From the NCBI GenBank assembly GCA_963512955.1, contig CAUPOP010000010.1, positions 14,157 to 78,156 on the forward strand: a stretch of 64,000 nucleotides of DNA, read 5' to 3'. Position 1 is the stretch's first letter, and each line of letters opens with the position of its first letter. The notes below the pieces were generated by a model that was not told where the DNA came from, ran no database searches, and saw nothing but the letters and a program-made list of their open reading frames with translations. Both the position numbers and the translations under genes were made by a program. Below are positions 3,468 to 22,279 of the stretch, piece by piece. Source of the DNA: an uncultured Flavobacterium sp. Its GTDB lineage: Bacteria; Bacteroidota; Bacteroidia; Flavobacteriales; Flavobacteriaceae.

Positions 3468-3469
3468 TT

Positions 3470-4465
3470 ATGAGTAAAGATATTATTAATGATCTAATCT
3501 ATATAAATCCTGTATCAAAAGACAACAGAACAGATACAAAGATTAATGAAGAACTAAAAAGTTTAGTAAAAGAATATCCTATTGCAACACCTCTTTATGA
3601 GATTGAGTTTAAAAAGGCTATTACTCCTATTCGAAAATATTACACGGAACTTATAAAAAACTTCATTACAAGTAAACTAAACGCAATAATTTCAAACAGC
3701 AAAACTGATAAACTAGAGGAAGAATATCAATATTTATATGTGGTTGCCGAAAGCGGGATAAAACAATATTTTAGCTTTATTAGAGAGCATATTGAAAATA
3801 ATAATCTTACGGAAGATTTATATAAAAGTCCTTCCAAAGACAAAAAAAGCGATGAAGCTTATGTAATTCATTTTATGAAATACAATTGCATAATGCTATT
3901 TATGGAACTTCAAGAGCGTTTCAATGGTAAAGCCGAGTTTGAAATAATGGAATTGGAAGAAATACAAGAAACGTATTTATATGAAGAAGCTTCAAAAGAT
4001 TTAGTAATCAAACCATACGAAGGCAGTCCAATTCATTACACCGAGAAAATCAAGGAAGACGCAAAAGCTTTCAGACCTATTAAAGGAGATTTAGAAGACA
4101 GGCGAGAAAATAATAAAATAATCAAATTTGAAGATTTAATTGCTAAACCTGACCAATTTGTAATTCATGAAAAAACATTGAATGAATATGGTATTATTGA
4201 CAACAAATACGAGTTTATTTTCAAAAAAGGGCATAAACAGCTTTTGGCTGCATTTATATTACAACTAAAAAACAAAGGCTACTTCAATGAGTTTACTTTC
4301 CCAGGTAGAAAACCAATTAGAGATTCTAAAATTTATCACTTTTTTGAACACCGCTATGGTAACAATAGCAATATAAATAAAGAGTTCAGAAACTTTAGAG
4401 GTAAAGATGAATTGAAATTTAAACAATTAGTAGATAAAACCTATTGGTTAGACAAAATATCCTAA
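3470..4465 (+). CDS. hypothetical protein (island orphan)
   Basis: 331-aa ORF starting 2 nt after the integrase stop; no motif recognised. Confidence 0.5.
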   Translation: MSKDIINDLIYINPVSKDNRTDTKINEELKSLVKEYPIATPLYEIEFKKAITPIRKYYTELIKNFITSKLNAIISNSKTDKLEEEYQYLYVVAESGIKQYFSFIREHIENNNLTEDLYKSPSKDKKSDEAYVIHFMKYNCIMLFMELQERFNGKAEFEIMELEEIQETYLYEEASKDLVIKPYEGSPIHYTEKIKEDAKAFRPIKGDLEDRRENNKIIKFEDLIAKPDQFVIHEKTLNEYGIIDNKYEFIFKKGHKQLLAAFILQLKNKGYFNEFTFPGRKPIRDSKIYHFFEHRYGNNSNINKEFRNFRGKDELKFKQLVDKTYWLDKIS

Positions 4466-4475
4466 AATCAAAAAG

Positions 4476-4512
4476 TGGTATTATCAATTCATAATACCAA
4501 ACCATAATACCA
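4476..4512. repeat. TGGTATTAT-N6-ATAATACCA-N4-ATAATACCA inverted plus direct repeat
   Basis: Read directly: 9-bp stem with 6-nt loop just after the stop at 4465, then a third copy at 4504-4512. Could be a terminator and/or protein-binding sites. Confidence 0.5.
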
Positions 4513-4668
4513 AAAAATATTTTAACCTCTTTATTTACAGCAGGTTACTAATACCATTTTTTCCTTTTTCTTCCTTACCAAAGTGCCTACCCTATCTTCG
4601 CTAAGTAATTGATAACCAATTATGACATTAGCGCTGATGTCCATTTTTAATTAAATCTTTTAACGAAG

Positions 4669-4971
4669 ATGGACACTAATATTTTAGAAAAATTAGAACG
4701 CATTGAAAAATTGCTAGAAACACAGCAAGCAATGCAAAAGCAAGTACTAAATTTTAACGATGCTTGCATTTATTTAGAACTTTCCCAGTCACACTTGTAT
4801 AAACTTACGAGTACTGGAAGCATTCCTCATTACAAACCTAATGGGAAGAAACTGTATTTCAATCGCCAAGAACTTGACAATTGGCTTTTGAGAAACAGAA
4901 GCAATTCTATTGACGAAATCGAACAAGAAGCAGCTAACTACTTAATCAAGAAAGGAAGGGTGCAATTATGA
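4669..4971 (+). CDS. helix-turn-helix (excisionase/HTH_17 family) DNA-binding protein
   Basis: LNFNDACIYLELSQSHLYKLTSTGSIPHYKPNGKKLYFNRQELDNWL is a typical Bacteroidota mobile-element HTH. Confidence 0.7.
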   Translation: MDTNILEKLERIEKLLETQQAMQKQVLNFNDACIYLELSQSHLYKLTSTGSIPHYKPNGKKLYFNRQELDNWLLRNRSNSIDEIEQEAANYLIKKGRVQL

Positions 4972-5252
4972 TAGAGTTAATGGACTTAGCAATGGAAATG
5001 TCAAAAGACATTCAATATTTGAAAGCTTATATAGAAGCCTTAAAAAATCAAAAAAGTGGTAAGTTAAGCGATGAGTGGCTAGACAATCAAGAAGTACTAC
5101 AAACACTTCATATAAGCCCACGAACACTACAAACCTATCGTGACAATGGTACACTTCCATTCAGTAAAATTGAAGGTAAATTCTATTACAAATCAAGTGA
5201 TATAGAAAACCTTTTACAGAGTAATTATACTAACAAATCAAAAGACAAGTAG
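4968..5252 (+). CDS. helix-turn-helix (excisionase/HTH_17 family) DNA-binding protein
   Basis: LDNQEVLQTLHISPRTLQTYRDNGTLPFSKIEGKFYYKSSDIENLL; 4-nt ATGA overlap with the preceding gene. Confidence 0.7.
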   Translation: MIELMDLAMEMSKDIQYLKAYIEALKNQKSGKLSDEWLDNQEVLQTLHISPRTLQTYRDNGTLPFSKIEGKFYYKSSDIENLLQSNYTNKSKDK

Positions 5253-5253
5253 T

Positions 5254-6159
5254 ATGATTACAAAGGAAAAAATACTGAACAAAACGCACTACGGTTTAAA
5301 TATCTATGCGTTTATTTTGAGACAGTTTTATCCTAACGCTACCGTTCTCTCTCTTCATGGGAGAGAATGTAGTGTTACTTGTAACCCTTACAATCAGGAT
5401 AAAGAAACTTTATTGGTAAGTATCGTAAATAATTGTGCAACACATAAAGATGTCGAAATTTTGGATTTTCATGGAGATGTCTTCGACTTTGCTCAATTGT
5501 ATTTTCAATGTAACAATCAAACGGAATTACTTCAAAAAATCAATAAAGTAATGCATTTGAGAATTGATACAAAAGAAACAAAAGAGTACGATTACATTGA
5601 ACAAGAAGACACAACTTGGTATGTAAAATGCAGTTTTTACAAAGCTCCTGTAATGAATGTATTCCCATTGAAAGAATTAAAATTAAGCGAGATATACGAT
5701 TTAATTACAAGCAATACCTATGAAAGCGTTACAAACCATTTAAGAACGATTACAGACCTTAAAGAGAAAAAAAAGTACAAAGCCAACAAATTTGATTATG
5801 TAACCTTCTCAGGAACTTTTACAAAGCGAAACGATGATGATTTAATCAAACATTCACTATTAATGACAATTGATTTAGATCATTTGGAAAACCTAAACCA
5901 AACTAGAGAAATGTTATTGAAAGATGAATATTTTGAAACCGAATTACTTTTCAAATCTCCTTCAGGTGATGGTTTAAAATGGATTATAAAAATTGATTTA
6001 GAACAAGCCACGCATCAAGAATATTATACCGCCGTATCTAATTATTTAGAGCAGCAATACAGTATCAAAGTTGATGCATCAGGTAAAGACATTTCCCGAG
6101 CTTGTTTTTTATGTTATGATTCCGAAGCTTACATTAACCCTAGACACACAACAAAATGA
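5254..6159 (+). CDS. BT4734/VirE-N-like protein, probable archaeo-eukaryotic-type primase-polymerase
   Basis: MTIDLDHL (DxD) and SPSGDGLKWII (sGxG-h) motifs in the order expected of AEP PrimPol domains. Confidence 0.55.
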   Translation: MITKEKILNKTHYGLNIYAFILRQFYPNATVLSLHGRECSVTCNPYNQDKETLLVSIVNNCATHKDVEILDFHGDVFDFAQLYFQCNNQTELLQKINKVMHLRIDTKETKEYDYIEQEDTTWYVKCSFYKAPVMNVFPLKELKLSEIYDLITSNTYESVTNHLRTITDLKEKKKYKANKFDYVTFSGTFTKRNDDDLIKHSLLMTIDLDHLENLNQTREMLLKDEYFETELLFKSPSGDGLKWIIKIDLEQATHQEYYTAVSNYLEQQYSIKVDASGKDISRACFLCYDSEAYINPRHTTK

Positions 6160-7910
6160 ATAAGAAAATATTTAATCCAAAAGAATGGTTAGAAGCTCCT
6201 GCAAAGCAAGAACCTCAACCAAAACAAATGCCTACTCCTATTGTTTCCGACAATCAGTTTGAAAACTATTTACAACAAATCGAAAATACAGGAACAGACA
6301 TAACACAGGGCTACGACAACTGGAGAAACATAGGCTTTGCACTAGCTGACGAATTTGGCGAAATGGGTAGAGACTATTTCCACAGAATAAGTAAATTCAA
6401 TAGTGCTTATGATTACAAAGAATGTGATGTACAATACAACAATTGCTTAAAAGCTAAAGGAACAGGCGTTACAATGGCTACAATCTATTATTTAGCACAA
6501 CAGAACAACATTAAAATACATAATGAAAAACCAATAGTAAATAATGAAGTAACGGAAGTAAAAATAGAGAAAACACCAGTATTTCCAAGTCATATTTACG
6601 AAACCTTACCACTATTCCTAAAAGATTGCGTTAAACCTGCAACCACAAACGAGGAAAGAGATATTTTGTTATTGGGTACACTCACAACATTAAGTGCTTG
6701 CTTACCTTCTATTTATGGTATTTACGATGGTAAAAAAGTAATGGCAAACTTGTATTTATTTGTAACAGCTCCAGCATCAGCAGGTAAAGGAAGATTAACC
6801 CAATGCAAACAATTGGTGCAGCCTATTCACAGATTAAAGCGAGAACAAGCTACTTTAATAAAAAAGGAATACGAAGCTAACCTTGCAATGTACAACCAAG
6901 AAAAAGGTAAAAATCCAAATGCCGAAAAACCTGCAAAACCACCCGAAAGAATGTTGTTCATTCCTGCCAATAATAGTACAACAGGAGTATTTCAATTATT
7001 GTTTGATAATAACGGAGAAGGATTAATTTTTGAAACTGAAGGCGATACATTAGCACAAGCATTTAAAAGCGATTATGGCAATTATTCTGATGGTTTTCGT
7101 AAAGCATATCATCACGAAACAATAAGCTATTACCGTAGAACAGACCGTGAATATGTAGATATTGAAAACCCATGTTTATCAACGGTATTATCTGGAACAC
7201 CAAAGCAAGTTTCAGCCTTAATACCAAATGCAGAAAATGGTTTATTCAGTAGGTTTATGTTCTATTACATGAACATCACTCCTATTTGGAAAAACGTATT
7301 TGAAATTCAAACTACAAATGGATTAGACGATTATTACAACGAACTAGGCGGACAATTTTTGGAGTTCTACAAAGCGTTAAACAACAACCCCAGTATTCAA
7401 ATTAAATTGAGCCAAGGCCAACAATTACAATTCAATAAGTATTTTTCAAAAGTGCAAACCAAATATTTGAATATTCAAACCGATGATTACATTGCCACAA
7501 TCAGAAGAATGGGACTAAATGCCTTTCGTTTAATGATGGTAATCACAACTTTACGAATCATGGAAGACGGCGATTGTTCCACTACTAGAGAATGTGAAGA
7601 CATCGATTTTCAAAATGTACTCGATGTAGTAACGGTTTTGACACAGCATAGTAGCAAAGTGTTTAACGATTTACCTGTTGAAACTCCAGTTACCACAAGA
7701 ACAAACCGTAAAGAAAAGTTCTTAGAAATGCTTCCCGAAGCTTTCACAACAGCCGACTATTTAGCTATTTCAGAGAAATTAACTATTCCTCATAAAACTG
7801 CCGAAGGCTACATAACTGCATTTGCAAAAGCAGGTTTAATACATAGAGAAATGAATGGAAAATACCGCAACACAAGCAAACAAGGGAATAAGGATTTTAA
7901 GGGGAACTAA
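6156..7910 (+). CDS. PriCT-2 / DUF3987-type P-loop protein (VirE-like putative replicative helicase)
   Basis: N-terminal GYDNWRNIGFALADEFGEMGRDYFHRIS (primase C-terminal-2 like), then Walker A TAPASAGKGRL. ATGA overlap with the upstream gene. Confidence 0.6.
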   Translation: MNKKIFNPKEWLEAPAKQEPQPKQMPTPIVSDNQFENYLQQIENTGTDITQGYDNWRNIGFALADEFGEMGRDYFHRISKFNSAYDYKECDVQYNNCLKAKGTGVTMATIYYLAQQNNIKIHNEKPIVNNEVTEVKIEKTPVFPSHIYETLPLFLKDCVKPATTNEERDILLLGTLTTLSACLPSIYGIYDGKKVMANLYLFVTAPASAGKGRLTQCKQLVQPIHRLKREQATLIKKEYEANLAMYNQEKGKNPNAEKPAKPPERMLFIPANNSTTGVFQLLFDNNGEGLIFETEGDTLAQAFKSDYGNYSDGFRKAYHHETISYYRRTDREYVDIENPCLSTVLSGTPKQVSALIPNAENGLFSRFMFYYMNITPIWKNVFEIQTTNGLDDYYNELGGQFLEFYKALNNNPSIQIKLSQGQQLQFNKYFSKVQTKYLNIQTDDYIATIRRMGLNAFRLMMVITTLRIMEDGDCSTTRECEDIDFQNVLDVVTVLTQHSSKVFNDLPVETPVTTRTNRKEKFLEMLPEAFTTADYLAISEKLTIPHKTAEGYITAFAKAGLIHREMNGKYRNTSKQGNKDFKGN

Positions 7911-8041: not shown

Positions 8042-8341
8042 ATGAACTTTGGAGAACACATAAAACAATTACGGGAACAAAACCAACTACTGCAAAGGCA
8101 ATTAGCCAATGCGTTAGATATGGACACCGCTATGCTAAGTAAGATTGAAAGAGGAGAACGGAGAGCCAAAAGGGAACACATACCTATTCTTGCTTCACTT
8201 TTAAAAACTAATGAAAAAGAATTATTCACATTATGGTTTGCCGACCAAGTCTATAATTTAATCAAAGAAGAGAATAATGCTTCTGAAATATTACAAGCAG
8301 CAGAAAAAGAAATAATATCAAAATTGAAACACTATGAGTGA
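8042..8341 (+). CDS. XRE-family HTH transcriptional regulator
   Basis: FGEHIKQLREQNQLLQRQLANALDMDTAMLSKIERGERR is a classic Xre/Cro HTH. Confidence 0.8.
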   Translation: MNFGEHIKQLREQNQLLQRQLANALDMDTAMLSKIERGERRAKREHIPILASLLKTNEKELFTLWFADQVYNLIKEENNASEILQAAEKEIISKLKHYE

Positions 8342-9350
8342 TTTAATACCAAGTAATAACAACTTCATTTTATATACTGCTCCTAGTGGTAATATAAAAA
8401 TTGAAGCATACATACAAGACGAAACAATTTGGCTTACACAACAAAAAATAGCCGATGTTTTTGGTGTAGATAGAACTGTTGTAACAAAACACTTGAAAAA
8501 TATTTATCAAGAAGAAGAATTACAAAAAGAAGCAACATGTGCAAAATTTGCACAAGTTCAAATGGAGGGTGATAGAGAAGTAAAACGTCTAATTGAATAC
8601 TACAATTTAGATGCTATTATTTCCGTTGGTTATCGTGTAAATTCTTCTAAAGCAACACAGTTTCGAATATGGGCTAATAACGTATTAAAAGAATTCATTG
8701 TAAAAGGATTTGCAATGGATGATGACCGATTAAAACAAGGCACTACAGCATTCGGAAAAGATTATTTTAAAGAATTACTCGAAAGAGTACGTTCAATTCG
8801 TGCAAGTGAAAGACGAATTTACCAACAAATCACGGATATTTTTGCTGAATGTAGCATAGATTATGACCCAAAAGCCGAAATTACTAAAAACTTCTATGCC
8901 ATTGTTCAAAACAAATTCCATTTTGCAATTACAGGTAAAACAGCTGCCGAAATTATCTTTTTAAAAGCAGATAGCTCAAAACCTCAAATGGGATTAACAA
9001 CTTTCAAAAATGCTCCTGATGGTAGAATATTGAAATCAGATATTGAAATTGCAAAAAACTATTTAGAAGAAAAAGAAATCAAACAATTGGAGCGTACCGT
9101 ATCAGGTTACTTTGATTATATCGAAAATCTTATTGAACGCCAAAACACCTTTACAATGGAAGCATTAGCAGAAAGTGTAAACAAGTTTTTAAGCTTCAAT
9201 GAATACAAAATACTCGAAGGATTCGGAAAAGTATCGCATCAACAAGCAATCAATAAAGCAGCAAAAGAATACAATAATTTCAACAAAACACAAAAAATAA
9301 ATTCAGATTTTGATAAGCAAATAAAAGCACTTCAAAAGAAAAATAAATAG
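8334..9350 (+). CDS. RhuM-family protein
   Basis: IEAYIQDETIWLTQQKIADVFGVDRTVVTKHLKNIY...NLDAIISVGYRVNSSKATQFRIWAN matches my recollection of RhuM family proteins. 8-nt overlap with the Xre gene. Confidence 0.7.
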   Translation: MSDLIPSNNNFILYTAPSGNIKIEAYIQDETIWLTQQKIADVFGVDRTVVTKHLKNIYQEEELQKEATCAKFAQVQMEGDREVKRLIEYYNLDAIISVGYRVNSSKATQFRIWANNVLKEFIVKGFAMDDDRLKQGTTAFGKDYFKELLERVRSIRASERRIYQQITDIFAECSIDYDPKAEITKNFYAIVQNKFHFAITGKTAAEIIFLKADSSKPQMGLTTFKNAPDGRILKSDIEIAKNYLEEKEIKQLERTVSGYFDYIENLIERQNTFTMEALAESVNKFLSFNEYKILEGFGKVSHQQAINKAAKEYNNFNKTQKINSDFDKQIKALQKKNK

Positions 9351-9372
9351 CAAAAATAGACTTATAATTAAA

Positions 9373-10032
9373 ATGAGTTCAAAAGAAACACAAGTAAAAT
9401 CTAAAGAAAGAGTTACAGACCACGGCGAAGTATTTACTAACAAGCGTGAGGTAAATGCCATGTTAGACTTAGTGAAACAAGAAACAGAAAGAATAGATTC
9501 TCGTTTTTTGGAGCCTGCATGTGGAACAGGAAATTTCTTAGTAGAGATTTTAGAAAGAAAATTAAAAGTAGTTGAAGCTCGTTACAAAAAAAGCCAATTG
9601 GAATACGAAAGAAATGCTATTACAGCAATTTCAAGTATATATGGAGTAGATATATTAGAGGATAATGTAGATGCTTGTAGAGATAGATTGTTAGGTATAT
9701 TCACTAAATATTACATCAATCATTACAAAAAAGATTTTAACGAAGATTTCTTAAAAGCAGCTCAATTTATTTTATCTAAAAATATCATTTGGGGCAATGC
9801 TTTATCTATGAAAACGACAGAAGGTAAACCAATTACATTTTCAGAATGGAGTGCAGTAAATGGTAGTATGTTAAAAAGAAGAGATTTTCAATTAGATAAA
9901 TTATTAGAAAATGTGGAATACGATGATAATGAAATGAATTTATTTTCAGACCATCAAGAACCTGTTTTTATTCCACAACCAGTAGCTGAATTTCCATTAA
10001 CGCATTTCTTAAAAATAGCTGAAAATGATTGA
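9373..10032 (+). CDS. methyltransferase-like protein with SAM-binding motif but no NPPY catalytic motif
   Basis: HGEVFTNKREVNAMLDL (motif X), FLEPACGTGNFLVEILER (motif I), IYGVDILEDNVDACRDRL. The ORF ends before any (N/D)PP(Y/F). Confidence 0.6.
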   Translation: MSSKETQVKSKERVTDHGEVFTNKREVNAMLDLVKQETERIDSRFLEPACGTGNFLVEILERKLKVVEARYKKSQLEYERNAITAISSIYGVDILEDNVDACRDRLLGIFTKYYINHYKKDFNEDFLKAAQFILSKNIIWGNALSMKTTEGKPITFSEWSAVNGSMLKRRDFQLDKLLENVEYDDNEMNLFSDHQEPVFIPQPVAEFPLTHFLKIAEND

Positions 10033-11560
10033 AACCAATTACAATCCAGATGTATTAACGTGCCTTGCTAATTTAAGCAATGACGAGGTATTTACACCTC
10101 CTACACTGGCTAACCAAATGTTAGATACTTTACCGCAAGAATTATTTAGCAATTCCAAAACAACATTTCTCGACCCAGTTAGTAAGTCTGGTGTTTTCTT
10201 ACGAGAAATAGCAAAACGTTTAATGATAGGTTTAGAAACTGAAATTCCTAACCAACAAGAACGATTAAACCACATTTTTAGCAAACAATTATTTGGTATT
10301 GCCATTACAGAACTTACCTCGCTATTATCTCGTAGAAGTGTATATTGTTCTAAAATTGCCAACGGTAAATATTCTATTTGTGAAACCTTTACAAACGAGC
10401 AAGGAAATATCCTTTTTGATAAAACCGAACACAATTGGAAAAACGGCAAATGTACCTTTTGTAATGCCAGCCAAGAAGTCTATGAGCGTGAGGATGCTTT
10501 AGAAACTTATGCTTACCAATTTATACATACCAACAACCCTGAAAAAATATTTAAGAATATGAAGTTTGATGTCATTATAGGAAACCCACCATATCAATTG
10601 AGCGATGGTGGCAATGGTAAAAGTGCAAAACCTATTTATCATAAATTCATTCAACAAGCAAAAAAATTAAATCCTAGATTTTTATCAATGATTATTCCAG
10701 CTCGTTGGTATGCTGGTGGTAAAGGATTAGATGATTTTAGAGAAGAAATGCTTACCGATAATAGAATACGCAAAATTGTAGATTTCGAAAATTCAAACGA
10801 AGTATTTCCGGGTGTTGATGTTGCTGGTGGTATTTGCTATTTCTTATGGGAAAAAGATAATCAAGGATTATGTGAAGTTATCAATTATAGTGATGGCTCA
10901 AAAGTAAATTCTGAAAGAGCATTAAATGAGTTTCCGATATTAATAAGACAAAGTCAAGCAATTCCAATTATTAGAAAAGTAATAGCAAACAATAAACAAG
11001 CATTAAATGTACGTGTGTCTTCAAGAAAACCTTTTGGATTACCTACTAATTATGCTCCTAAGAAAAAAGGAATACCTTGTTGGTTTACTCAAAAAATTGG
11101 CAAACAATTTGCAAATCCAGAAGATGTTTCAGACCCTTTCAAAATTTTAGACAAATGGAAGTTTTTAGCTCCAAAAGCTCCAATTGCAGGACAAACTGAT
11201 TTTTCTAAACCTGTTGGTTTTTATTATGAAGGAAACACATTAATTGCAAAACCAGGCGAATGTTGTACCGAATCGTTTATTGTTTTAGGTGCTTTCAAAA
11301 CCGAGAATGAGGTACTTGCTTATAAATCTTATATTTTCACAAAAACAGTTCGCTTTCTTTTATTACAAACTGTCGTTTCACAGGATGTTACAAAAAACAA
11401 TTTTCAATTTGTTCCTGATTTAATAAAGTATGAAGGAATATATACGGATGAAATGTTGAGAAAAAAGTGGGGTATAAATGAAGAAGAATGGCGATACATT
11501 GACACAAAAATAAAAGCAACAGAATTAATGGGAAATAGAAAAAACGAAGACAATGAGTAA
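10025..11560 (+). CDS. N6-adenine DNA methyltransferase (Eco57I-like gamma class)
   Basis: DEVFTPPTLANQMLDTL (motif X), FLDPVSKSGVFLREI (motif I with Gly replaced by Lys), FDVIIGNPPYQLSDGG (motif IV). 8-nt overlap with the upstream ORF. Confidence 0.8.
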   Translation: MIETNYNPDVLTCLANLSNDEVFTPPTLANQMLDTLPQELFSNSKTTFLDPVSKSGVFLREIAKRLMIGLETEIPNQQERLNHIFSKQLFGIAITELTSLLSRRSVYCSKIANGKYSICETFTNEQGNILFDKTEHNWKNGKCTFCNASQEVYEREDALETYAYQFIHTNNPEKIFKNMKFDVIIGNPPYQLSDGGNGKSAKPIYHKFIQQAKKLNPRFLSMIIPARWYAGGKGLDDFREEMLTDNRIRKIVDFENSNEVFPGVDVAGGICYFLWEKDNQGLCEVINYSDGSKVNSERALNEFPILIRQSQAIPIIRKVIANNKQALNVRVSSRKPFGLPTNYAPKKKGIPCWFTQKIGKQFANPEDVSDPFKILDKWKFLAPKAPIAGQTDFSKPVGFYYEGNTLIAKPGECCTESFIVLGAFKTENEVLAYKSYIFTKTVRFLLLQTVVSQDVTKNNFQFVPDLIKYEGIYTDEMLRKKWGINEEEWRYIDTKIKATELMGNRKNEDNE

Positions 11561-14045
11561 AAACTATTTTCCAGAAAAAAGCATTCCAAAAGTGTATGCT
11601 TATACCGATACAAGATTTCCAAATTGCATAAAAGTGGGTTATACCACCAAAACTGCGGTAGAAAGAGTAAAAGAACAATATCCCGTAAAATTACCTAATA
11701 TGAGTTATGAAATCATATTAGAAGAATTAGCAATGCGTAATGATGGCACATTATTTACCGATAAAGACATTCATAAATTACTAAATAACAAAAAAGTAAA
11801 ACATATCAATGGAGAATGGTTTGAATGTTCACTAAAAGAAATAAAAGCTTGTATTCTTGAAATAAAAACAGGTATTGTTAACGAAGACAAACGTACACTC
11901 GATTTCGGATTACGACCAGAACAAGCCGAAGCCATAAAAAAAACAGAAGCTTATTTTATCAGTTCTAAAAAAGAAAATAAAAATCAAATCCCTCATTTTC
12001 TTTGGAATGCAAAAATGCGTTTTGGTAAAACCTTTACAACCTATCAATTAGCTAAAAAAATGGGTTGGACTAAAATATTGGTTTTAACCTTTAAACCTGC
12101 GGTTCAAAGTGCTTGGAAAGAAGATTTAGAATCGCATATCGATTTTGCAGGTTGGCAATTTGTTTCTAATAAAGAAGATGATTTAAGTTATGAAAACATT
12201 GATACAAAGAAACCGTTTGTATTCTTTGGTTCCTTTCAAGATTTATTAGGTACTAACTCTGCAGGAGGTATCAAATCTAAAAATGAATGGGTACATACTA
12301 CTAATTGGGATTGTGTTGCTTTTGACGAATACCATTACGGAGCTTGGCGAGAAAATGCAAAAGAACTTTTTGAAGCTGAAAGTGCCAAAGAACAACAGTT
12401 TGGGGAAGGAGTCGGAATTGAGTATTTTGATGAAAGTATAATGCCAATTACGACAGGGCATTATTTGTATTTGTCGGGTACACCTTTCAGAGCTATATCA
12501 TCAGGAGAGTTTATCGAAGAGCAAATTTTCAACTGGACATATTCAGATGAACAACGAGCGAAAACAGAATGGAAAGGGGATAAAAATCCTTATTTATCAT
12601 TACCAAGAATGGTGATGTTAACATATCAAATGCCTGACACTATTGTAGAAGTAGCAATGAAAGGAGAATTTAATGAGTTTGATTTAAATGTATTCTTTTC
12701 TGCTGATGGCGAAGGTAATAATGCAAAATTCAAATACGAAGATTACGTTCAAAAGTGGCTGGATTTAATTAGAGGTAACTTAGCGGAAACAACCATTGAT
12801 AATTTAAAAATGGGTGCAAAGAAACCACCAATGCCATTTTCAGATGCTCGACTATTAAATGTGTTACAGCATACTTTTTGGTTTTTACCAACGGTTGCAT
12901 CTTGTCATGCAATGAAAAATTTAATAGATCAAAAGCAAAATAAATTTTACCATGATTATGAAGTTGTTGTAAGTGCAGGAACAGGAGCTGGTATTGGTGT
13001 TGAAGCATTAAAACCAGTAGAAAAAGCTTTAGGCAATCCATTACAAACTAAAACAATAACACTTTCTTGTGGTAAATTAACAACTGGTGTTTCTGTCAAA
13101 CCATGGACAGGAATATTTATGTTACGTAATTCATCAAGTCCCGAAACATATTTTCAAGCTGCATTTAGAGTGCAAACACCTTGGACTGTAAAAAATCCTG
13201 ATAAGAATGCTCCTAATCGTGAAGAAATAATAAAACATGAATGTTATGTTTTTGATTTTGCTCCAGATAGAGCTTTACGACAAATTGCAGATTATAGTTG
13301 TCGACTAAATGTTGGTGAAAGTAATCCCGAAAAGAAAGTTGAAGAATTTATCAACTTCTTGCCAGTTTTGGCTTATGATGGTAGTTCAATGAAAGAAATC
13401 GATGCTGCTGGAATTTTAGATATTGCAATGAGCGGAACAACTGCAACACTATTAGCAAGACGATGGGAAAGTGCTTTATTGGTTAATGTTGATAATTTTA
13501 CTTTACAAAGGTTGATGGATAATGAGGCTGCAATGCAAGCCTTAAGTAACATTGAAGGCTTTAGAAATCTAAATCAAGACATAGAAACTATTATCAATAA
13601 ATCAGAATCTATTAAAAAAGCAAAAGCCGAAGCAAACGAAAAAGAGCTTACTAAAAAAGAAAAAAAAGAACTTTCAGACGAAGAGAAAGAATACAAAAGC
13701 ATCAGAAAACAAATTCAAGAAAAGCTTATCAAATTTGCTACTCGTATTCCTGTATTTATGTATTTAACTGATTACAGAGAAAGAAGTTTAAAAGATGTAA
13801 TTACTCAATTAGAACCTGCATTATTCAAAAAAGTAACAGGATTAAATGTTAAAGATTTTGAATTGTTAGTCAGTCTTGGTGTTTTCAATAGTGCATTAAT
13901 GAATGATGCTGTCTATAAATTTAAACGATATGAAGATGCAAGTTTGTCATATTCTGGCATTAACAAACATCCTGAGGATAAAATAGGTCTTTATGATACG
14001 GTAATAAGTGCGGAGGAATTTAAACAAGAATTTGAGAATATCTAA
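11553..14045 (+). CDS. T5orf172 (GIY-YIG-like) domain fused to SF2 DEAD/DEAH-type helicase; putative restriction/translocase subunit
   Basis: N-terminal KVYAYTDTRFPNCIKVGYTT...INGEWFECS. Helicase motifs AKMRFGKT (I), AFDEYHY (II), LSGTPF (III), YFQAAFRVQT (VI). 8-nt overlap with the MTase gene. Confidence 0.75.
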   Translation: MSKNYFPEKSIPKVYAYTDTRFPNCIKVGYTTKTAVERVKEQYPVKLPNMSYEIILEELAMRNDGTLFTDKDIHKLLNNKKVKHINGEWFECSLKEIKACILEIKTGIVNEDKRTLDFGLRPEQAEAIKKTEAYFISSKKENKNQIPHFLWNAKMRFGKTFTTYQLAKKMGWTKILVLTFKPAVQSAWKEDLESHIDFAGWQFVSNKEDDLSYENIDTKKPFVFFGSFQDLLGTNSAGGIKSKNEWVHTTNWDCVAFDEYHYGAWRENAKELFEAESAKEQQFGEGVGIEYFDESIMPITTGHYLYLSGTPFRAISSGEFIEEQIFNWTYSDEQRAKTEWKGDKNPYLSLPRMVMLTYQMPDTIVEVAMKGEFNEFDLNVFFSADGEGNNAKFKYEDYVQKWLDLIRGNLAETTIDNLKMGAKKPPMPFSDARLLNVLQHTFWFLPTVASCHAMKNLIDQKQNKFYHDYEVVVSAGTGAGIGVEALKPVEKALGNPLQTKTITLSCGKLTTGVSVKPWTGIFMLRNSSSPETYFQAAFRVQTPWTVKNPDKNAPNREEIIKHECYVFDFAPDRALRQIADYSCRLNVGESNPEKKVEEFINFLPVLAYDGSSMKEIDAAGILDIAMSGTTATLLARRWESALLVNVDNFTLQRLMDNEAAMQALSNIEGFRNLNQDIETIINKSESIKKAKAEANEKELTKKEKKELSDEEKEYKSIRKQIQEKLIKFATRIPVFMYLTDYRERSLKDVITQLEPALFKKVTGLNVKDFELLVSLGVFNSALMNDAVYKFKRYEDASLSYSGINKHPEDKIGLYDTVISAEEFKQEFENI

Positions 14046-14108
14046 AATGCTATCTGTAAAAGGGAATAAATCTAATTTTTAAAATGTAGAATTTAAAAAC
14101 AATACACT

Positions 14109-16181
14109 ATGAGCCAACAATTGTATTTCAACCTACTAACTTTTGAATGGCCACAAAAGCCAATAACATTATACTTTAGTTTAGAACAAATTAGAGGAAG
14201 TGTTTTGGTGTATAAATCTAACTACCCAAACAACATAAATGAAATTTTCCCCAATCTAGGAAACGAGGGTATTGAGAAAATCTACACCTCTTTCGATAAT
14301 AATCTCGAAGGTACTACCCCATTGGACATTGATTTCAATGATAAAAATGTTTTTTTCTATAAAGATTTTTTGAATTATAAACTCTACAATCATTTCAAGT
14401 CGGTTAAGGGAGTTATAGCTTCAAAGAACTTTATCAAAGAACCTCAAATTTGGATAAATATTGAAAAAGAACAAACAAAAGACTTTTGGGTGTTCAATAA
14501 ATTTTCTTTAAAAATTCAATTCAGTAAAGTATCAAAATTTCCTGAGTTAGTTATCGCCTATGACGACACTTCAAAAATGTATAAAAAATCAGTAGTTGAA
14601 GTACTAGAAGATATTGCTCCAATTCATATTAAAAAGATAATTACAAATAAATCCGTCTATAACTATCAAAAGATTTCTCCAGAACTAAAAACAAGTTTAG
14701 ATCTTGAGAAAACATGGCCTATTCTAAATCGTGATTTAGCTTCAAAACTAAACATCGAAGTTGAGATTGAAAAAACAAAAAATAAATACACACGTTATAA
14801 ATTAGCAATAGACGATTTTGTCAACACCTATTTAGATAATAAAGATTTCAAAACCCTGATTCCCTTACATTCCTCAGAATACTTAAAAGTCGAAGAAACA
14901 AGGATATTAAACGTAGATAAAAATTGTAATGAGTTAATATTTAAAGATTATGTTATTGGTTCCATTCCAAAAATAGATTTCCCGAGAAATGGTGCTTTAG
15001 TAACATCTCCAAAACCAAACATTACTATTTTCTATATTTATCACGAAAGTCATGCAGAAGTCTGTAGTTCATTAAGTAAACACTTAAAAAATGGTACAGG
15101 AGATTATTACAAAGGTCTTTACAAGTTTGCTAATATCGAATCGCATACCGATATGACATTAGCTATAAAATACAAAGATGAAAATAATCCATTGCCTGAG
15201 ATTTTAGAAAAGTTAAATAGTGCTAATTTTAATTATGATAATACCTACGTGGCGTTTTATATTAGTCCGATTGGTAAGTTTGATGAAGATAAATCACGCA
15301 AAAAAATATATTATCGAGTAAAAGAAGAATTACTAAAGAGAAGAATTATTTCACAAGTAATAGATTACGATAAACTAAAGTCAAAAATTAATAATTATCA
15401 ATTTGAATTAAACAATATCTCATTAGCATTATTGGCTAAATTAGAAGGTAAACCTTGGCAATTATCTACAAGTCCAAACAAAGATTTAATCATTGGTGTA
15501 GGTGCATTTAGAAACATAGATGAAAATACGCAATATGTAGCAAGTGCATTTAGTTTCAATAATAGTGGGTCTTTCAAAAAGTTTGAATATTTCACGAAAA
15601 GCGATACAGTTCAACTAGCAGGTTCAATATGTAATGCGATAGATCAATATGCAAAACTAGAAGACAATCCAACCAAAGTAGTAATACACTTTTATAAAGA
15701 AATGAGCGACAAAGAGCTAAAACCTATCATTCAAAAAATGAATAGATTAAACTTAAATTGTCCATTATACATCATTAACATAAATAAAACTGATTCAGAA
15801 GATTTAATAGCTTTTGATATGAATTGGCACAATCGTTTAATGCCCAGAAGCGGAACAATAATCAAGATTGGTAAAAAGCAATTTTTACTTTTCAACAATA
15901 CAAGATACAACGATTTTGACAAACATTCTGATTTAGAAGGCTACCCATTCCCTATTAAATTGGGTATTTCATCACCAAATAATGAAGAAGAATTAGACAG
16001 TTACGAAATCAAAAAACTAATTGAGCAAGTATATCAATTCAGTAGATTATATTGGAAATCATTAAGACAACAAAACGTACCTATAACCATCAAATATCCA
16101 GAAATGGTAGCCGAAATAGCACCTCACTTTGAAAGTGGTAACATTCCACCTCACGGTAAAGAGATTTTATGGTTTTTATAA
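14109..16181 (+). CDS. prokaryotic Argonaute (MID-PIWI), predicted catalytically inactive, long-B-like
   Basis: MID-like KKIYYRVKEELLKRRIISQVI. PIWI-like NISLALLAKLEGKPWQL and RQQNVPITIKYPEMVAEIA, with hydrophobic C-terminus EILWFL. Expected catalytic positions read DLIIGVGAF (no Asp) and KVVIHFYKE (no DG). Confidence 0.8.
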   Translation: MSQQLYFNLLTFEWPQKPITLYFSLEQIRGSVLVYKSNYPNNINEIFPNLGNEGIEKIYTSFDNNLEGTTPLDIDFNDKNVFFYKDFLNYKLYNHFKSVKGVIASKNFIKEPQIWINIEKEQTKDFWVFNKFSLKIQFSKVSKFPELVIAYDDTSKMYKKSVVEVLEDIAPIHIKKIITNKSVYNYQKISPELKTSLDLEKTWPILNRDLASKLNIEVEIEKTKNKYTRYKLAIDDFVNTYLDNKDFKTLIPLHSSEYLKVEETRILNVDKNCNELIFKDYVIGSIPKIDFPRNGALVTSPKPNITIFYIYHESHAEVCSSLSKHLKNGTGDYYKGLYKFANIESHTDMTLAIKYKDENNPLPEILEKLNSANFNYDNTYVAFYISPIGKFDEDKSRKKIYYRVKEELLKRRIISQVIDYDKLKSKINNYQFELNNISLALLAKLEGKPWQLSTSPNKDLIIGVGAFRNIDENTQYVASAFSFNNSGSFKKFEYFTKSDTVQLAGSICNAIDQYAKLEDNPTKVVIHFYKEMSDKELKPIIQKMNRLNLNCPLYIININKTDSEDLIAFDMNWHNRLMPRSGTIIKIGKKQFLLFNNTRYNDFDKHSDLEGYPFPIKLGISSPNNEEELDSYEIKKLIEQVYQFSRLYWKSLRQQNVPITIKYPEMVAEIAPHFESGNIPPHGKEILWFL

Positions 16182-16188
16182 TATCAAG

Positions 16189-18060
16189 ATGAAAGAACAA
16201 AAACAGTTAGAAAATCTATTCTTACATATTTTCCAGACAAGGGAATACATAATTAATTCTCTTGAACTAAAAAAGTATTCTGAATTAGAGAAAAAAGGGA
16301 TAATAAAAAATAATTCAGATGGTAATTATGAAGTGGATTTATATTCATCATATATATATGATCACTTAAAAAAATTAGTTACGATTAAACTAGCTACTGG
16401 CTTAACTGATGACATTGAGGAATCTTTCAAAACTATTCATAATCTTGAAGAACTAATAAAGAATGAATATAATTATGGTAATATAATAAATGCTTACACT
16501 CAAATATTTGATGCATTTAGAGTTCATTATTTAACAGAATTAGATACAAAAGGGATAGATGTTATATTATATTTCAATGAGCTAAAAAAGAAATCTAATG
16601 TAATTTATGAGTTAAGAAATTTTGAAAAAATATTTTTTATTTTTCTTGTTTCAAAAGATATTAGCATTGAACAAACAAGTGAATTTTTAGAAGCAAATAA
16701 TGATGAAAACAGCAGACATTACTTAAATAATTACCTGTATTCGATTATTGAAAAAAAAGTAGAATTTTCAATTAATTTGATTGAATATCTTTCAAAAAAA
16801 CATGAAAATGAAACACCTCATTATCTAGTAATTTTAATTAGTTCTTTAATTAATAAAGGGCAAATAGAATATTTAGTAAAACTTAAAGAGAGGTTAACAA
16901 AATCCACAAAAGAAGCATTATGGGCTTATACCTTACTGAATATTAATTCACAAATATTATATAATGAATTATTAGAAATCTTAGTAAAGGATAATAGTAT
17001 TGAATATTTATATCATAAAACTAGAATAATTGAAAGCTTAATGAACTCCCAGTTTATTACTTCTGAAGATTCTGAAACGCTATCAAACAAATTATTTGAG
17101 TTTTTTGAAAATCCTGATGATAATGAAATACACAGCTATTTCCATACAATTACATATGGTTTTGAAAAATTTGAAGATTTAAAATACGAACTTTTGCATG
17201 GTTACCTAAACCGAACACAGAACATCAAAACAATAAGTTCTTTCTTTTATAATTTTAAAGAACCCAAATATTTATTTCATTTAATTGGTGTCATTTATAA
17301 TAATGGTTGGCATAGAAACTCTATAAATCTTTTTGAACAACCATTATCACATTTTTGGTCAACTTCAAGAGACAAAACAGAAGAATTTATTTTATCATTA
17401 ATTTCTACCAAACAAAAAACAGGTTTATTACCTATTGAAATAATTATGACTGGTAGAGAAACACCAATGCAAATTGATTTATTAAAACTTAATACTGAAC
17501 AAGAACAAGTTTTAGCAATAGCAATGATTTGCAATTTCCCACATTCATTTGACAAACTATTACCAATATTAATCAAATTAAAAGATTCTAAATTCCCCAA
17601 AGTGATTGAAAACCTTCAAATGCAGTTAAGCATTCTTGTTTATGAATGTTATAACGAAACATTAATTGAATGGTTAGAAAACTTAATACCAAAATCAAGA
17701 AAGAAAACTGCGTTTTTGAAACCTATAAAACTATCTCTTGAGCTATATAAAGAGATTAAAGAGTTAAAACATAAGAATAACGACTTAAATCCTTATTACA
17801 ATGAAAAATCATTAATGGATTTATATTATAATTTAGAAAACGAAAATAGAGCTAAAATGATGGAAAGCGTCAGAAATAACCCTACGGGTCTTTCGAGCAT
17901 GTTTAAAAATACATCTATAATTCGAGGTAATAGTTGGCGTTTCGAACATGAAGAAAATGTTATGCCACTAGGTAAAGTAGAAACTCAAATGTATATAGAT
18001 ACCAGAGCCTATAAAAATCCTGAATTATATGAATATCAACTTCAAAGATTCAATAAATAA
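16189..18060 (+). CDS. hypothetical protein, pAgo-associated, apparently all-alpha
   Basis: ATG 7 nt after the pAgo stop; about 620 aa, rich in Leu/Ile/Glu/Lys/Asn. No catalytic or transmembrane motif recognised. ATG at 16189 preferred over the track's TTG at 16129, which overlaps the pAgo 3' end. Confidence 0.6.
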   Translation: MKEQKQLENLFLHIFQTREYIINSLELKKYSELEKKGIIKNNSDGNYEVDLYSSYIYDHLKKLVTIKLATGLTDDIEESFKTIHNLEELIKNEYNYGNIINAYTQIFDAFRVHYLTELDTKGIDVILYFNELKKKSNVIYELRNFEKIFFIFLVSKDISIEQTSEFLEANNDENSRHYLNNYLYSIIEKKVEFSINLIEYLSKKHENETPHYLVILISSLINKGQIEYLVKLKERLTKSTKEALWAYTLLNINSQILYNELLEILVKDNSIEYLYHKTRIIESLMNSQFITSEDSETLSNKLFEFFENPDDNEIHSYFHTITYGFEKFEDLKYELLHGYLNRTQNIKTISSFFYNFKEPKYLFHLIGVIYNNGWHRNSINLFEQPLSHFWSTSRDKTEEFILSLISTKQKTGLLPIEIIMTGRETPMQIDLLKLNTEQEQVLAIAMICNFPHSFDKLLPILIKLKDSKFPKVIENLQMQLSILVYECYNETLIEWLENLIPKSRKKTAFLKPIKLSLELYKEIKELKHKNNDLNPYYNEKSLMDLYYNLENENRAKMMESVRNNPTGLSSMFKNTSIIRGNSWRFEHEENVMPLGKVETQMYIDTRAYKNPELYEYQLQRFNK

Positions 18061-19781
18061 TGAATATCAAACCTACAATAATAAAAGAGTATTTACAATC
18101 TTTAAAGGAAGATAATGAATTAGATGTAATCTTTACAATTTTACTTCAAACACTTGAATATGAAATACTCTCTACTCCAAAAGAATATAAAGGCTTTTCT
18201 CAATATGGCAAAGACATAGTAACTGTAAGAGTAGATCCTACGGATGGTATAAAAAAACGATTCTATTTTGAGTTAAAAGCTGGTGATATTGACTCACAAA
18301 AATGGAATATGCCCGATAATGGAGTACGAGATACTCTTAGAATGACTGTCGATGCCGATTTTAAAACTACTTATAAAGATTTCGATAAGTTACCAATTAA
18401 AGTTATTTTGGTATTTAATGGAATGGTAAGTGAAAAAATTCGAACATCACTTAATGGTTTTTCTCAAAAAGAATTTATTGAAAAAGGTATTGAATTTGAA
18501 GAGTGGAATATCTATAAAATTTCTGAATTACTCTCAAATGAAATTTTTAGTAAATATTTATTGATTAATGATGAAAATATTAGACTTTTCAACAGAGTTT
18601 TAGTAAATCTAAATGTAGGTGAAAATGTTTCAAATGATTTTGATTCACTATTGAATAATTTACTATTTAAAAATTCATTTACTAAAACAAAAGGCAAATT
18701 AAGTCGCTCACAAAAACTTATATTTCAATCCGTTAACTTAATAGCATATATAATTTATACAGAATCAAAAAACTACAATAACTTATCAATTGCAAAAAAA
18801 TACTTAACTCATTTAATACTAAAATATTGGTATTGGATTTTAAAAAACAAATTAGAAACGAACAAAGAAATTTTAGCTTTATTCAGTCAATTTTACATTT
18901 TTTATAATTCCACTATTGAAGAACTTTTAGAAAGGAATTTAAATCTATTAGAATTAAAGGATGGCTTACACTATGAAAATGGAGGTAGATATGAACAGAT
19001 AGGTTATACAATTAGAAGTTATGATTTTAATGTATTACTAAATAGTTTTATTATCTCTTTAAAAGATAAAATTCAAAAAGACCAGTATAAAGGCTATAAT
19101 GATAGAATAAACAACACCTTACAGAATATAAATGTTCTTTCAAGACCTTTACTAGATATTCACTCAATTCCTATAATTGACAATATTAATCTATTAATTT
19201 ATTTTGGCGACATTGAATCAGCGAAGCAATATCTTATGAATATATTAGGTTATTTAAAGTTTCTTAAAAAGAAATATAATAAATTTCCGGATGCAGCAAA
19301 CAATATAGAGAGTGTAATAAAATATACAGTTACTGGCATAAAACCTGTTTATTATATTGATTCTGTTTCACCATTATTAGCAATTATAATGGAATATATC
19401 GCAATATTAGATTTAGAAAAAGCATACTATGAAACAAGAAAATTCATCATTGAAAATGATATTACTTTAGGTTTATTTATTCCGCATCATAGCATTAATT
19501 CCAATTCAAAACATCTTATTGAAGATACTGAAAATGATTTAGAAGAACAATTATTTTCGAGGTCAGTTAATGAAGGTTATCAAATTGAAACAAGTATGTA
19601 TTCTGAATTTGACAAAGAATTATCATTTCAAGATTTCAAGAGTAAAATTTTAAAAAGAAAAGAAGAATTTCAATATGAATACAGAACTGATAAATATGGT
19701 TTCTCTTCATTAAGAACAATTGCTCATTATTATTTCAAAACACCTTATTTCCCTGATTATTGGCGTTATCATTTAAAATAG
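18060..19781 (+). CDS. hypothetical protein, pAgo-associated, with possible N-terminal PD-(D/E)xK nuclease fold
   Basis: TAATG stop/start overlap with the upstream gene. LQTLEYEIL ... QYGKDIVTV ... RFYFELKAGDI gives E-helix, D52 and E71-x-K73 in PD-(D/E)xK order and spacing. The remaining ~400 aa look helical. Confidence 0.55.
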   Translation: MNIKPTIIKEYLQSLKEDNELDVIFTILLQTLEYEILSTPKEYKGFSQYGKDIVTVRVDPTDGIKKRFYFELKAGDIDSQKWNMPDNGVRDTLRMTVDADFKTTYKDFDKLPIKVILVFNGMVSEKIRTSLNGFSQKEFIEKGIEFEEWNIYKISELLSNEIFSKYLLINDENIRLFNRVLVNLNVGENVSNDFDSLLNNLLFKNSFTKTKGKLSRSQKLIFQSVNLIAYIIYTESKNYNNLSIAKKYLTHLILKYWYWILKNKLETNKEILALFSQFYIFYNSTIEELLERNLNLLELKDGLHYENGGRYEQIGYTIRSYDFNVLLNSFIISLKDKIQKDQYKGYNDRINNTLQNINVLSRPLLDIHSIPIIDNINLLIYFGDIESAKQYLMNILGYLKFLKKKYNKFPDAANNIESVIKYTVTGIKPVYYIDSVSPLLAIIMEYIAILDLEKAYYETRKFIIENDITLGLFIPHHSINSNSKHLIEDTENDLEEQLFSRSVNEGYQIETSMYSEFDKELSFQDFKSKILKRKEEFQYEYRTDKYGFSSLRTIAHYYFKTPYFPDYWRYHLK

Positions 19782-19857
19782 GAACGCTATCGCTGTCGTA
19801 TTTGCATCCCACCCAGCCCAACGCTCCCAGCCGCACAAGTGGTTTCTCCCACCGCAC

Positions 19858-20598
19858 TCAGCACTTGTTTCCCCAACGGTACAGCACTTTTATTTTCCTG
19901 TTTTATTTTCCCAACCCCATCGCACATAAAACAGGAAAATAAAAGAGCTGTACTTCCAACCCTAAAAACAAGAGCTGAAACCCAACGCTAAAACCACTCC
20001 CAAGCTATTTTACATAATGAAGGCAACATTATAGTTCAAAAAAAAGAGATAATATTGGAAAAACGTTATTTTTTTGAACTATAATTTCATTATGTAAAAT
20101 AGCCGCACTCCAACGCTCCCACCCGAAATAGGAACAGTATTTTCATTGTTTTTTGAAGGTGCAATACAATTCCATAACAACACTTCAGCAAGCATTGAAA
20201 ACCCTAATTTCAATCAACACTCTTGCACCCTCAAAAATCAAAACCAAGAAAGAGTAACAAATTTTAGTGCTGGATATAAAGCAGTTTTATTTGTTTTTTC
20301 AATGGTTTTTATATCCAACCCTTAAAATCTGTTACCCTTTCAGAACTACCCGATTCAAAAAGAAAATCCCACCAAAAAACAACTCCCGATTAAGTCAAGG
20401 AAACAAAACAAAAAAAATAAAAAAAAGAATGCAAAGGTAAGTTTCGGGTTTACAAAAAAGCAAGTTCAAGCCTACGGTTTTTAAAAAAATCTCCACCCAA
20501 ACATTTCCAATCCACTTCCCGATTAAACAACGAAAACCCTATTCCAGTTCAACCATATGGGTAGTATTTTTTTAAAAAAACTTGCTTTTTTGAAACCC
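19858..20598 (-). other. cluster of five long imperfect inverted repeats in an ORF-free 0.88-kb region (candidate structured RNA or replication/transfer origin)
   Basis: Hairpin A is 19858-19978 (24/25-bp inner stem). B is 20003-20103 (18+17 bp). C is 20150-20237 (14/15 bp). D is 20248-20341 (~30 bp). E is 20446-20598 (20 bp). All four transition mismatches are A.C on + and therefore G.U on -, hence the tentative minus-strand call. Confidence 0.5.
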
Positions 20599-20661
20599 TA
20601 CACTAGAACAGATGGCTTTCTTTTTTTTCCTTTTTTCTTTTGAAAAATTTTATGGCGAAGC

Positions 20662-21111: not shown

Positions 21112-21115
21112 TCCA

Positions 21116-21140
21116 AGCCCGATTTTTTCGGGCTTTTTCT
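21116..21140 (+). terminator. rho-independent terminator
   Basis: AGCCCGA-tttttt(loop)-TCGGGCT followed by TTTTCT. Confidence 0.7.
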
Positions 21141-21161
21141 TTAAAATTCTCATTGAAAATT

Positions 21162-22027: not shown

Positions 22028-22046
22028 GTTTAAATTACTTAAAATT

Positions 22047-22168: not shown

Positions 22169-22279
22169 CCTTGTAAAGCATTATAAATACTACTAACTTC
22201 AAATATTGTATCGGAAAGTAAGTTATTTATGTATTTTTAAAATTATTTTTAAAGCTTGAAAAACTATCATAATCCAAAA

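Follow-up and report, generated by a model that had tools for sequence, protein, structure and literature searches.

The stretch of Flavobacterium DNA analysed here (the window: 64,000 nucleotides (nt) from an uncultured Flavobacterium sp., contig CAUPOP010000010.1 of assembly GCA_963512955.1, positions 14,157 to 78,156) raises the question whether three closely packed genes on its forward strand constitute a new prokaryotic Argonaute (pAgo) system. An earlier note on this DNA had proposed that a catalytically dead pAgo is encoded together with two large novel partners on an integrative island. The three genes are the following.

14109..16181, + strand: long-B pAgo, predicted to be catalytically inactive (Pfam, PADLOC, alignments, AlphaFold2 and Foldseek)
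16189..18060, + strand: OloA homologue of 623 amino acids (aa), helical, first gene of an Olokun cassette in cargo slot 2 (PADLOC)
18060..19781, + strand: OloB homologue of 573 aa with an N-terminal PD-(D/E)XK motif (D52, E71-x-K73) and a helical C-terminal domain (PADLOC, alignment)

The open reading frames (ORFs) are as the earlier note described them (690 aa, 623 aa where about 620 had been given, and 573 aa). The locus very probably carries two independent defence modules of already known kinds, side by side on an integrative element of ca. 20 kb, and no new three-gene Argonaute system. The first module would be the dead long-B pAgo, which in effect belongs to the backbone of the element and has variable cargo on both sides, and the second the Olokun cassette that fills the downstream cargo slot. 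We consider the two to be independent because they do not co-occur in the other loci analysed, because the cassette is exchanged in sibling elements, and because one lineage has lost the pAgo with OloA and OloB kept.

Olokun is a named two-gene anti-phage system in which adaptin-like OloA and the PD-(D/E)XK nuclease OloB form a 2:2 complex (bioRxiv 10.1101/2025.07.10.664194). The PADLOC hidden Markov model (HMM) for OloA (PDLC03925) matches the product of 16189-18060 with 4.9e-63 (residues 10-621, model positions 23-589 of 596), and that for OloB (PDLC03926) matches the product of 18060-19781 with 1.4e-134 (model positions 3-554 of 556). PADLOC alone identified the two proteins: Pfam and NCBIfam returned no match for either, and a comparison with PDB sequences gave no meaningful match. 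Residues D52, E71, and K73 are invariant across 29 OloB homologues. The AlphaFold2 model of OloB (predicted local distance difference test (pLDDT) 84) consists of an alpha/beta domain at the N-terminus and a large helical domain behind it; a Foldseek search of the full-length model against the PDB gave no significant match, only weak local likeness to the nucleases MspJI, HamA, and MUS81. Because these structural matches are weak and local, OloB is assigned as a nuclease from its HMM match and from the D...ExK motif, which is invariant. Sir2, TIR, or transmembrane effectors are absent from the downstream proteins, as had been stated. Judged by sequence and adjacency, both proteins fall within the definition of Olokun. 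The window pair resembles the described system in its full-length HMM matches, its gene order, the overlap of stop and start codons, the retained D...ExK motif of OloB, and a helical OloA without a Pfam domain. It differs in being a predicted Bacteroidota variant, and in lying directly after a pAgo with which it is probably co-transcribed.

Linkage between the pAgo and the Olokun pair was analysed from both sides. The pAgo has 543 relatives confirmed by tblastn in species-representative genomes, and the best 80 of these loci were searched by tblastn for OloA and OloB within 10-kb flanks. From the Olokun side, 59 OloB loci were analysed; upstream DNA of 4.1 kb or more is available for 31 of them. 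OloA and OloB were found in none of the 80 pAgo loci, including those from other Flavobacterium genomes with 84-85% identical pAgos. Likewise, an intact pAgo was found in none of the 59 OloB loci; an adjacent OloA was found in 52 of them. The closest pAgo encountered (91% aa sequence identity, locus L088) is followed by ORFs of 73 and 173 aa and then by the backbone gene for DUF6943. OloB homologues with 86-97% identity belong to OloA-OloB pairs without a pAgo (F. flavigenum, F. davisii, Flavobacterium sp. 140616W15, and one metagenome contig), and these pairs adjoin RlaP, RtcB, WYL, and RNA-repair genes.

A recurrent arrangement was seen around Olokun in other Flavobacterium genomes. A gene for an RlaP (PF10127) nucleotidyltransferase is located 4-7 nt before OloA, and a second one sometimes follows OloB (L082:5379-10825, L083:3583-9779, L084:5378-9722, L085:3286-9722). 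The islands around these four loci also contain genes for RtcB, WYL, Hen1/Pnkp, and RNA ligase, which hints at a tie between Olokun and RNA-repair modules.

The nucleotide sequence of the window was compared with that of a sibling element from Flavobacterium fragile (locus L001). The two are 94.8% identical from 1537 to 8046 (backbone), lack similarity over 8316-14077 (RhuM and restriction-modification (RM) cargo), are 83% identical over 14078-16183 (pAgo), again lack similarity over 16184-19775 (Olokun), and are 91-98% identical from 19776 to 22221 (a non-coding segment and the genes for DUF6943 and DUF6266). The breakpoints coincide with the stop codon of the pAgo and the stop codon of OloB, which indicates that Olokun fills a slot as a discrete cassette. 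Clustering of the neighbouring genes in the 80 pAgo loci resulted in a general plan: DUF6617, VirE_N, DUF3987, a helix-turn-helix (HTH) protein, slot 1, pAgo, slot 2, and then backbone or other cargo.

A natural deletion of the pAgo was found in another sibling element, represented by two independent assemblies (L086 from ENA and L087 from Logan). Both carry the same Eco57I-type methyltransferase (MTase) gene, the same T5orf172 gene, and intact OloA and OloB, with 92-95% nt sequence identity to the window (97% aa sequence identity for OloB). Of the pAgo, only ca. 36 nt at the start, in which AAG replaces the ATG start codon, and ca. 100 nt at the end are left; the same 7-nt spacer comes next. 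The deletion is internal and covers ca. 1.9 kb (L086:5880-6140 and L087:1424-1560, equivalent to window 14046-16188). Remnant and spacer together indicate that the junction between pAgo and Olokun is older than the element in the window, and that Olokun was retained after the pAgo had been lost.

The close packing of the three genes is readily confirmed from the sequence: 7 nt separate the stop codon of the pAgo from the OloA start codon at 16189 (TAA-tatcaag-ATG), and the OloA stop codon overlaps the OloB start codon at 18060 (TAATG). Among the 79 pAgo loci with a downstream ORF, 31 (the window included) have a next same-strand ORF that begins at most 35 nt from the pAgo stop codon or overlaps it. 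These tightly packed ORFs form ca. 20 clusters that are unrelated to each other, some of them encode AraC and Fur regulators that belong to metal-resistance operons, and close junctions to this pAgo family are also formed by DISARM and Tiamat genes. Because unrelated ORFs follow equally closely in so many loci, the 7-nt gap is no sign of partnership; it is a property of the downstream cargo slot. Scans for sigma-70 promoters and intrinsic terminators performed no better than on shuffled sequence and are ill-suited to Bacteroidota.

In a dedicated three-gene system, the dead pAgo would serve as a guide-directed sensor, and target recognition would activate an OloA-OloB nuclease complex, leading to BPAN-like abortive infection with a two-protein effector. 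What speaks for such a system also weighs against two independent modules. The genes are on the same strand, with just 7 nt between the pAgo and OloA, the TAATG overlap between OloA and OloB, and no terminator-like site between them; co-transcription of the pAgo and OloA, and some functional cross-talk, are conceivable. The pAgo-OloA junction is old enough to be common to the L086/L087 lineage and its ancestor. The PD-(D/E)XK motif of OloB is intact, activation of PD-(D/E)XK nucleases by long-B pAgos is known, and the recruitment of such a nuclease by a long-B pAgo has a precedent in BPAN. The co-occurrence counts cover the best 80 of the 543 pAgo loci and 59 OloB loci. We nevertheless consider a dedicated three-gene system highly improbable. 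Linkage is absent in both directions in these loci, the near-identical backbone of F. fragile has unrelated genes in precisely the interval in question, and pAgos are joined just as closely to AraC, Fur, DISARM, and Tiamat genes. OloA-OloB pairs with 86-97% identity stand alone in other contexts, and the sibling element without a pAgo keeps its pair intact. A set of nuclease-NTPase operons that included Olokun has been tested, and all of them, without a pAgo, protected E. coli from at least one phage (bioRxiv 10.1101/2025.07.10.664194). A profile of OloB retrieved no PDB chain at E <= 1 from a copy of the database that includes the EcAgo entry 23wq (presumably the EcBPAN complex with EcbAgaN, the presence of the EcbAgaN chain being unconfirmed). 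The claim of a single pAgo system with two novel partners is thus not upheld, since the partners match OloA and OloB and are unlinked to pAgos both ways. Among the outcomes that the earlier note had named as speaking against its proposal were partners that match named pAgo effector families and homologues without conserved linkage to pAgo genes; here the partners match a named system, Olokun, and conserved linkage is lacking in the loci analysed.

The product of 14109-16181 is an Argonaute beyond reasonable doubt, and we regard it as a genuine, catalytically dead Argonaute and a probable member of the long-B pAgos, the testable defining features of which it displays. The peptides quoted in the earlier note (KKIYYRVKEELLKRRIISQVI, NISLALLAKLEGKPWQL, GVGAF, VIHFYKE, RQQNVPITIKYPEMVAEIA, and EILWFL) are all present in the translation, and its description as MID/PIWI-like proved correct. 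Pfam Piwi matches residues 396-671 (3.7e-16), and the PADLOC pAgo model PDLC02385 matches the 690-aa protein from end to end (2e-247). The AlphaFold2 model (mean pLDDT 89, predicted template modelling score 0.88) has RsAgo as its top fold match in the PDB (E 9e-30, template modelling (TM) score 0.69; Foldseek), followed by PIWI/AGO proteins; RsAgo and the eukaryotic and long-A Argonautes align over the whole chain. Model and Foldseek alignments reveal the full-length ("long") architecture, with N, L1, PAZ-region, and L2 preceding MID-PIWI. A fused effector was ruled out, the Argonaute fold spanning all 690 aa. Among proteins of solved structure, AfAgo, EcAgo (the Argonaute of BPAN), and RsAgo are closest by sequence, and each of them is a long-B or truncated long-B pAgo. 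The protein family comprises 110 clusters in the protein database, and the relatives that were identified in the hit lists are nearly all from Bacteroidota.

Key residues were analysed in an alignment of 32 homologues with identities down to 30%. Y401, K405, Q416, and K444 are invariant and align with Y123, K127, Q137, and K163 of AfAgo, so that the protein has a YK-type MID motif (Y-K-Q-K). We take these four AfAgo residues to form the pocket for the guide 5'-phosphate, as in the AfPiwi structures. In sequence, the protein looks like a functional guide binder. At the DEDD positions, EcAgo has G492, E532, Q568, and D700 (2026 structural paper), which correspond to G465, E493, Y529, and E665 in the HMMER alignment. 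G465 is part of GVGAF and Y529 is part of VIHFYKE; G465, Y529, and E665 are invariant or nearly so in the family, and position 493 is variable. With two of the three metal-binding carboxylates gone, slicing is not expected, which is in line with what had been read from these peptides. According to the literature, loss of the DEDX tetrad is the rule across all long-B pAgos, several of which are nonetheless functional. The pAgo is 83% identical to its F. fragile counterpart at the nucleotide level, compared to 95-98% in the surrounding backbone, which suggests allelic exchange or faster evolution of this gene inside near-identical elements.

The remaining features of the element are listed in the order of their coordinates.

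1760..1774, + strand: attL-like repeat copy at the 3' end of mnmE (TGCATCGGGAAGTAA), left island border (mnmE by Pfam; repeat read from the sequence)
1994-2368, + strand: HTH_17/DUF3853 excisionase-like gene (Pfam HTH_17, 5e-8)
2373-3467, + strand: tyrosine integrase (Pfam Phage_integrase, 3.9e-19; Phage_int_SAM_5; Arm-DNA-bind_5)
within 3470..7910, + strand: backbone genes for DUF6617 and two HTH_17 proteins (Pfam)
5254-6159, + strand: BT4734-like_N protein (formerly VirE_N, og_54) (Pfam)
6156-7910, + strand: DUF3987/PriCT_2 primase-helicase (Pfam)
8042..8341, + strand: XRE-family HTH protein, 99 aa (Pfam HTH_31, 2.8e-9; HTH_3, 6.6e-9)
8334-9350, + strand: slot 1, RhuM (Pfam/PADLOC)
9373-10032, + strand: slot 1, MTase fragment of 219 aa (MmeI_Mtase/UPF0020 N-terminal part) (Pfam/PADLOC)
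10025-11560, + strand: slot 1, Eco57I-type MTase, 511 aa (Pfam/PADLOC)
11553-14045, + strand: slot 1, T5orf172 with helicase-like restriction endonuclease half (Pfam/PADLOC)
19776..20661, no strand: non-coding part of the conserved backbone, located right of cargo slot 2 and containing two long hairpins (19879-19953, 20004-20103) (identity to siblings)
20662-21111, + strand: DUF6943 protein (Pfam)
21314-22027, + strand: DUF6266 protein (Pfam)
22207..22221, + strand: attR-like repeat copy (TGTATCGGAAAGTAA), right island border (read from the sequence)

The window begins with mnmE (Pfam), and the island of ca. 20 kb (about 1775-22221) is integrated at the 3' end of this gene. The integrase and the direct repeats flanking the island at its target gene identify it as an integrative element, in agreement with the earlier note. 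The direct repeat (15 nt) is imperfect, with 13 of the 15 positions matching. A generic direct-repeat search for attachment (att) sites was swamped by AT-rich noise; the repeat was found at the borders set by homology breakpoints, the homology to the sibling elements L001, L002, and L088 ending at 22221-22224. Genes of the left backbone recur upstream of the pAgo in the 80 loci from other genomes (cluster c7 in 15, c4 in 29, and c1 in 41 of them). On the right side, the DUF6943 and DUF6266 proteins share 98-99% aa sequence identity with those of L001 and L002, and their clusters (c19 and c15) recur downstream of the pAgo cargo in other genomes. The non-coding segment that starts at 19776/19777 is 91-98% identical to L001 and L002. 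It extends over ca. 880 bp (19776-20661), within which no ORF of at least 61 aa is wholly contained, and it includes a hairpin with 28-nt arms (19879-19953) and a compound hairpin (20004-20103). Rfam returned no match for this stretch, which may serve as a terminator, an oriT, or a regulatory region.

The XRE-family HTH protein is the only conserved companion of this pAgo family among the best 80 loci, and it is fused to the pAgo in some genomes. It is present in 55 of the 80 loci and, in those without cargo in slot 1, is encoded directly upstream of the pAgo (-314..-42). Inserted cargo keeps the two genes 5.8 kb apart in the window. Nonlabens spongiae has an HTH-pAgo fusion of 782 aa (P0027), the first 88 aa of which are homologous to the HTH protein (45% sequence identity, 1e-24), and fusions of PF01381 to long-B pAgos have been recorded previously (Ryazansky et al.).

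Slot 1 of the window (8334..14045) holds a split type IIG-like RM module together with RhuM. The Eco57I-type MTase corresponds to one half of a single type IIG model and the T5orf172 protein to the other, so the RM-like module reported upstream of the pAgo is real. The MTase part of this module (9373-11560) is divided into ORFs of 219 aa and 511 aa that overlap by 8 nt, and it may be frameshifted or a two-part enzyme. In L086, genes for an AAA_15/SMC_N ATPase and a DUF4276 protein (domains as in PARIS AriA/AriB; L086:1524-3319) are inserted inside the RM-like module, between the Eco57I-type MTase and T5orf172. Elsewhere, slot 1 contains type I HsdR, type IIG enzymes, AbiD, a dCTPase-like protein, or RhuM.

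Slot 2 is the position of Olokun in the window. In other genomes, it is occupied by type III RM, by DISARM DrmA/DrmB, by Tiamat TmtA or a TmtA-like together with an MkoA-like protein, by a GajB-like helicase, by WYL with an AriA/NsnB-like ATPase, by a GmrSD-like enzyme, or by PD-T4-1-like and RecD-like proteins. Heavy-metal resistance genes are present in slot 2 of 40 of the 80 loci (L008-L016, L032, L039, L042, L045-L050, and others) and code for a resistance-nodulation-division (RND) pump fused to OEP, HlyD, Fur, DUF3703, MerT-HMA, a P-type ATPase, and a TonB receptor. That RND efflux genes are enriched in the "operons" of long-B pAgos was reported without explanation (Ryazansky et al. 2018); hitch-hiking of slot-2 cargo probably accounts for it. 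The associations of long-B pAgos with RND pumps, type I/III restriction components, and helicases that were found in earlier surveys would then be those of slot neighbours, not of partners. Slot 2 of the closest siblings has other contents: proteins of 470 aa and 432 aa and a MORN-repeat protein of 298 aa in F. fragile (L001:12278-15903), proteins of 188, 186, and 284 aa in L002 (L002:12106-14143), and the 73-aa and 173-aa ORFs in L088 (L088:10101-11109). PADLOC gave no match for the first two of these from L001 and for the first from L002, and Pfam gave no informative match for the three from L001. These genes could represent uncharacterised defence cassettes. The two slots resemble the defence and cargo hotspots of integrative elements and prophages, in that flanks with 95-98% identity enclose wholly replaced genes with sharp breakpoints, and in that they hold known defence systems of various types or resistance operons. 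They differ from the usual hotspots in that the conserved gene between them, the pAgo, is itself of a defence type.

That the pAgo is tied in position to the backbone (DUF6617, VirE_N, DUF3987, HTH, pAgo) could also mean that it is part of the element's own biology. Together with the HTH protein and the VirE_N/DUF3987 replication module, it would exclude competing related elements or control the excised replicating form, and Olokun would be unrelated cargo. The og_54 association, noted in the literature without explanation, is consistent with such a role, as is the presence of non-defence metal-resistance operons in the surrounding cargo. We give this little credence, as both flanking slots are rich in defence systems and all characterised long-B pAgos (RsAgo, BPAN, BPAS, BPAM) target invading DNA according to the literature.

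With two independent modules, by analogy to RsAgo and EcAgo, the pAgo would load small 5'-phosphorylated guides (probably RNA) and bind complementary invader DNA. Without a dedicated effector, it would most likely interfere by RsAgo-like binding and silencing, under control of the HTH protein. Olokun would act alone as an OloA2-OloB2 complex, the PD-(D/E)XK domains of which would cut DNA. Co-transcription of the three genes is probable and would be incidental, the slot cargo being packed head-to-tail on the backbone strand. The Olokun complex might instead have been captured by the backbone pAgo as a guide-activated effector, recently and in this lineage only; more generally, the pAgo subclade might be a universal nucleic-acid sensor that potentiates any nuclease cassette in its downstream slot. 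We regard this as highly improbable, although a recent, lineage-specific coupling could still hold because the genes are almost certainly co-transcribed. That the pAgo is a decaying, non-functional passenger, as its deletion in one sibling lineage and the loss of its catalytic residues might suggest, is scarcely credible, and the pseudogene reading was rejected, given a full-length ORF with a confidently predicted structure, 49 invariant columns over 32 homologues (the four 5'-phosphate-binding positions among them), 543 relatives in representative genomes, and the absence of the tetrad from every long-B pAgo, including several functional ones.

With the preferred reading of two independent modules, neither module is new in kind. 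The inactive pAgo adjacent to an RM-like module on an island has stood; its dedicated partners have not. The failure of the three-gene Argonaute candidate spares cloning on a false premise. Literature searches revealed no paper that connects Olokun and Argonaute, and none that places the pAgo subclade in question on integrative elements of Bacteroidota. Such elements make up a widespread family, in which these pAgos belong to the backbone and are flanked by two cargo slots. The arrangement of HTH and pAgo offers a clean test case for an effector-less long-B pAgo, and the downstream slot is a place to seek uncharacterised defence genes.

The known long-B systems BPAN (EcAgo with EcbAgaN), BPAS, and BPAM share with the window a long-B pAgo upstream of same-strand genes. 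BPAN in addition uses a PD-(D/E)XK nuclease, and its EcAgo is the third-closest solved relative of the window pAgo. In contrast to these systems, the downstream genes in the window are swappable cargo without co-occurrence. Membership in BPAN, BPAS, or BPAM was rejected: Pfam and PADLOC detected no RecB-like bAgaN, SIR2 bAgaS, or transmembrane bAgaM, and there is no co-evolving downstream gene. RsAgo is alike in being catalytically dead, full length, and devoid of a co-evolving effector gene; it differs in sequence (ca. 14% identity in the structural alignment) and in length (ca. 777 aa compared to 690 aa in the window). The gene context of the window pAgo, with VirE_N upstream, fits a long-B subclade that is linked to og_54 (VirE N-terminal domain). 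Ryazansky et al. 2018 and Song et al. 2023 drew attention to this subclade without assigning an effector or function to it, and the latter explicitly deferred it to future study. The window pAgo agrees with it in the inactive PIWI domain, the YK-type MID pocket, the full-length scaffold, the VirE_N (BT4734-like_N) gene a few genes upstream on the same strand, and the absence of a conserved downstream effector; nothing essential differs. What is new for this subclade is that the og_54 association reflects the backbone of an integrative element, that the XRE HTH protein is the sole conserved companion of the pAgo, and that both of its flanks are cargo slots.

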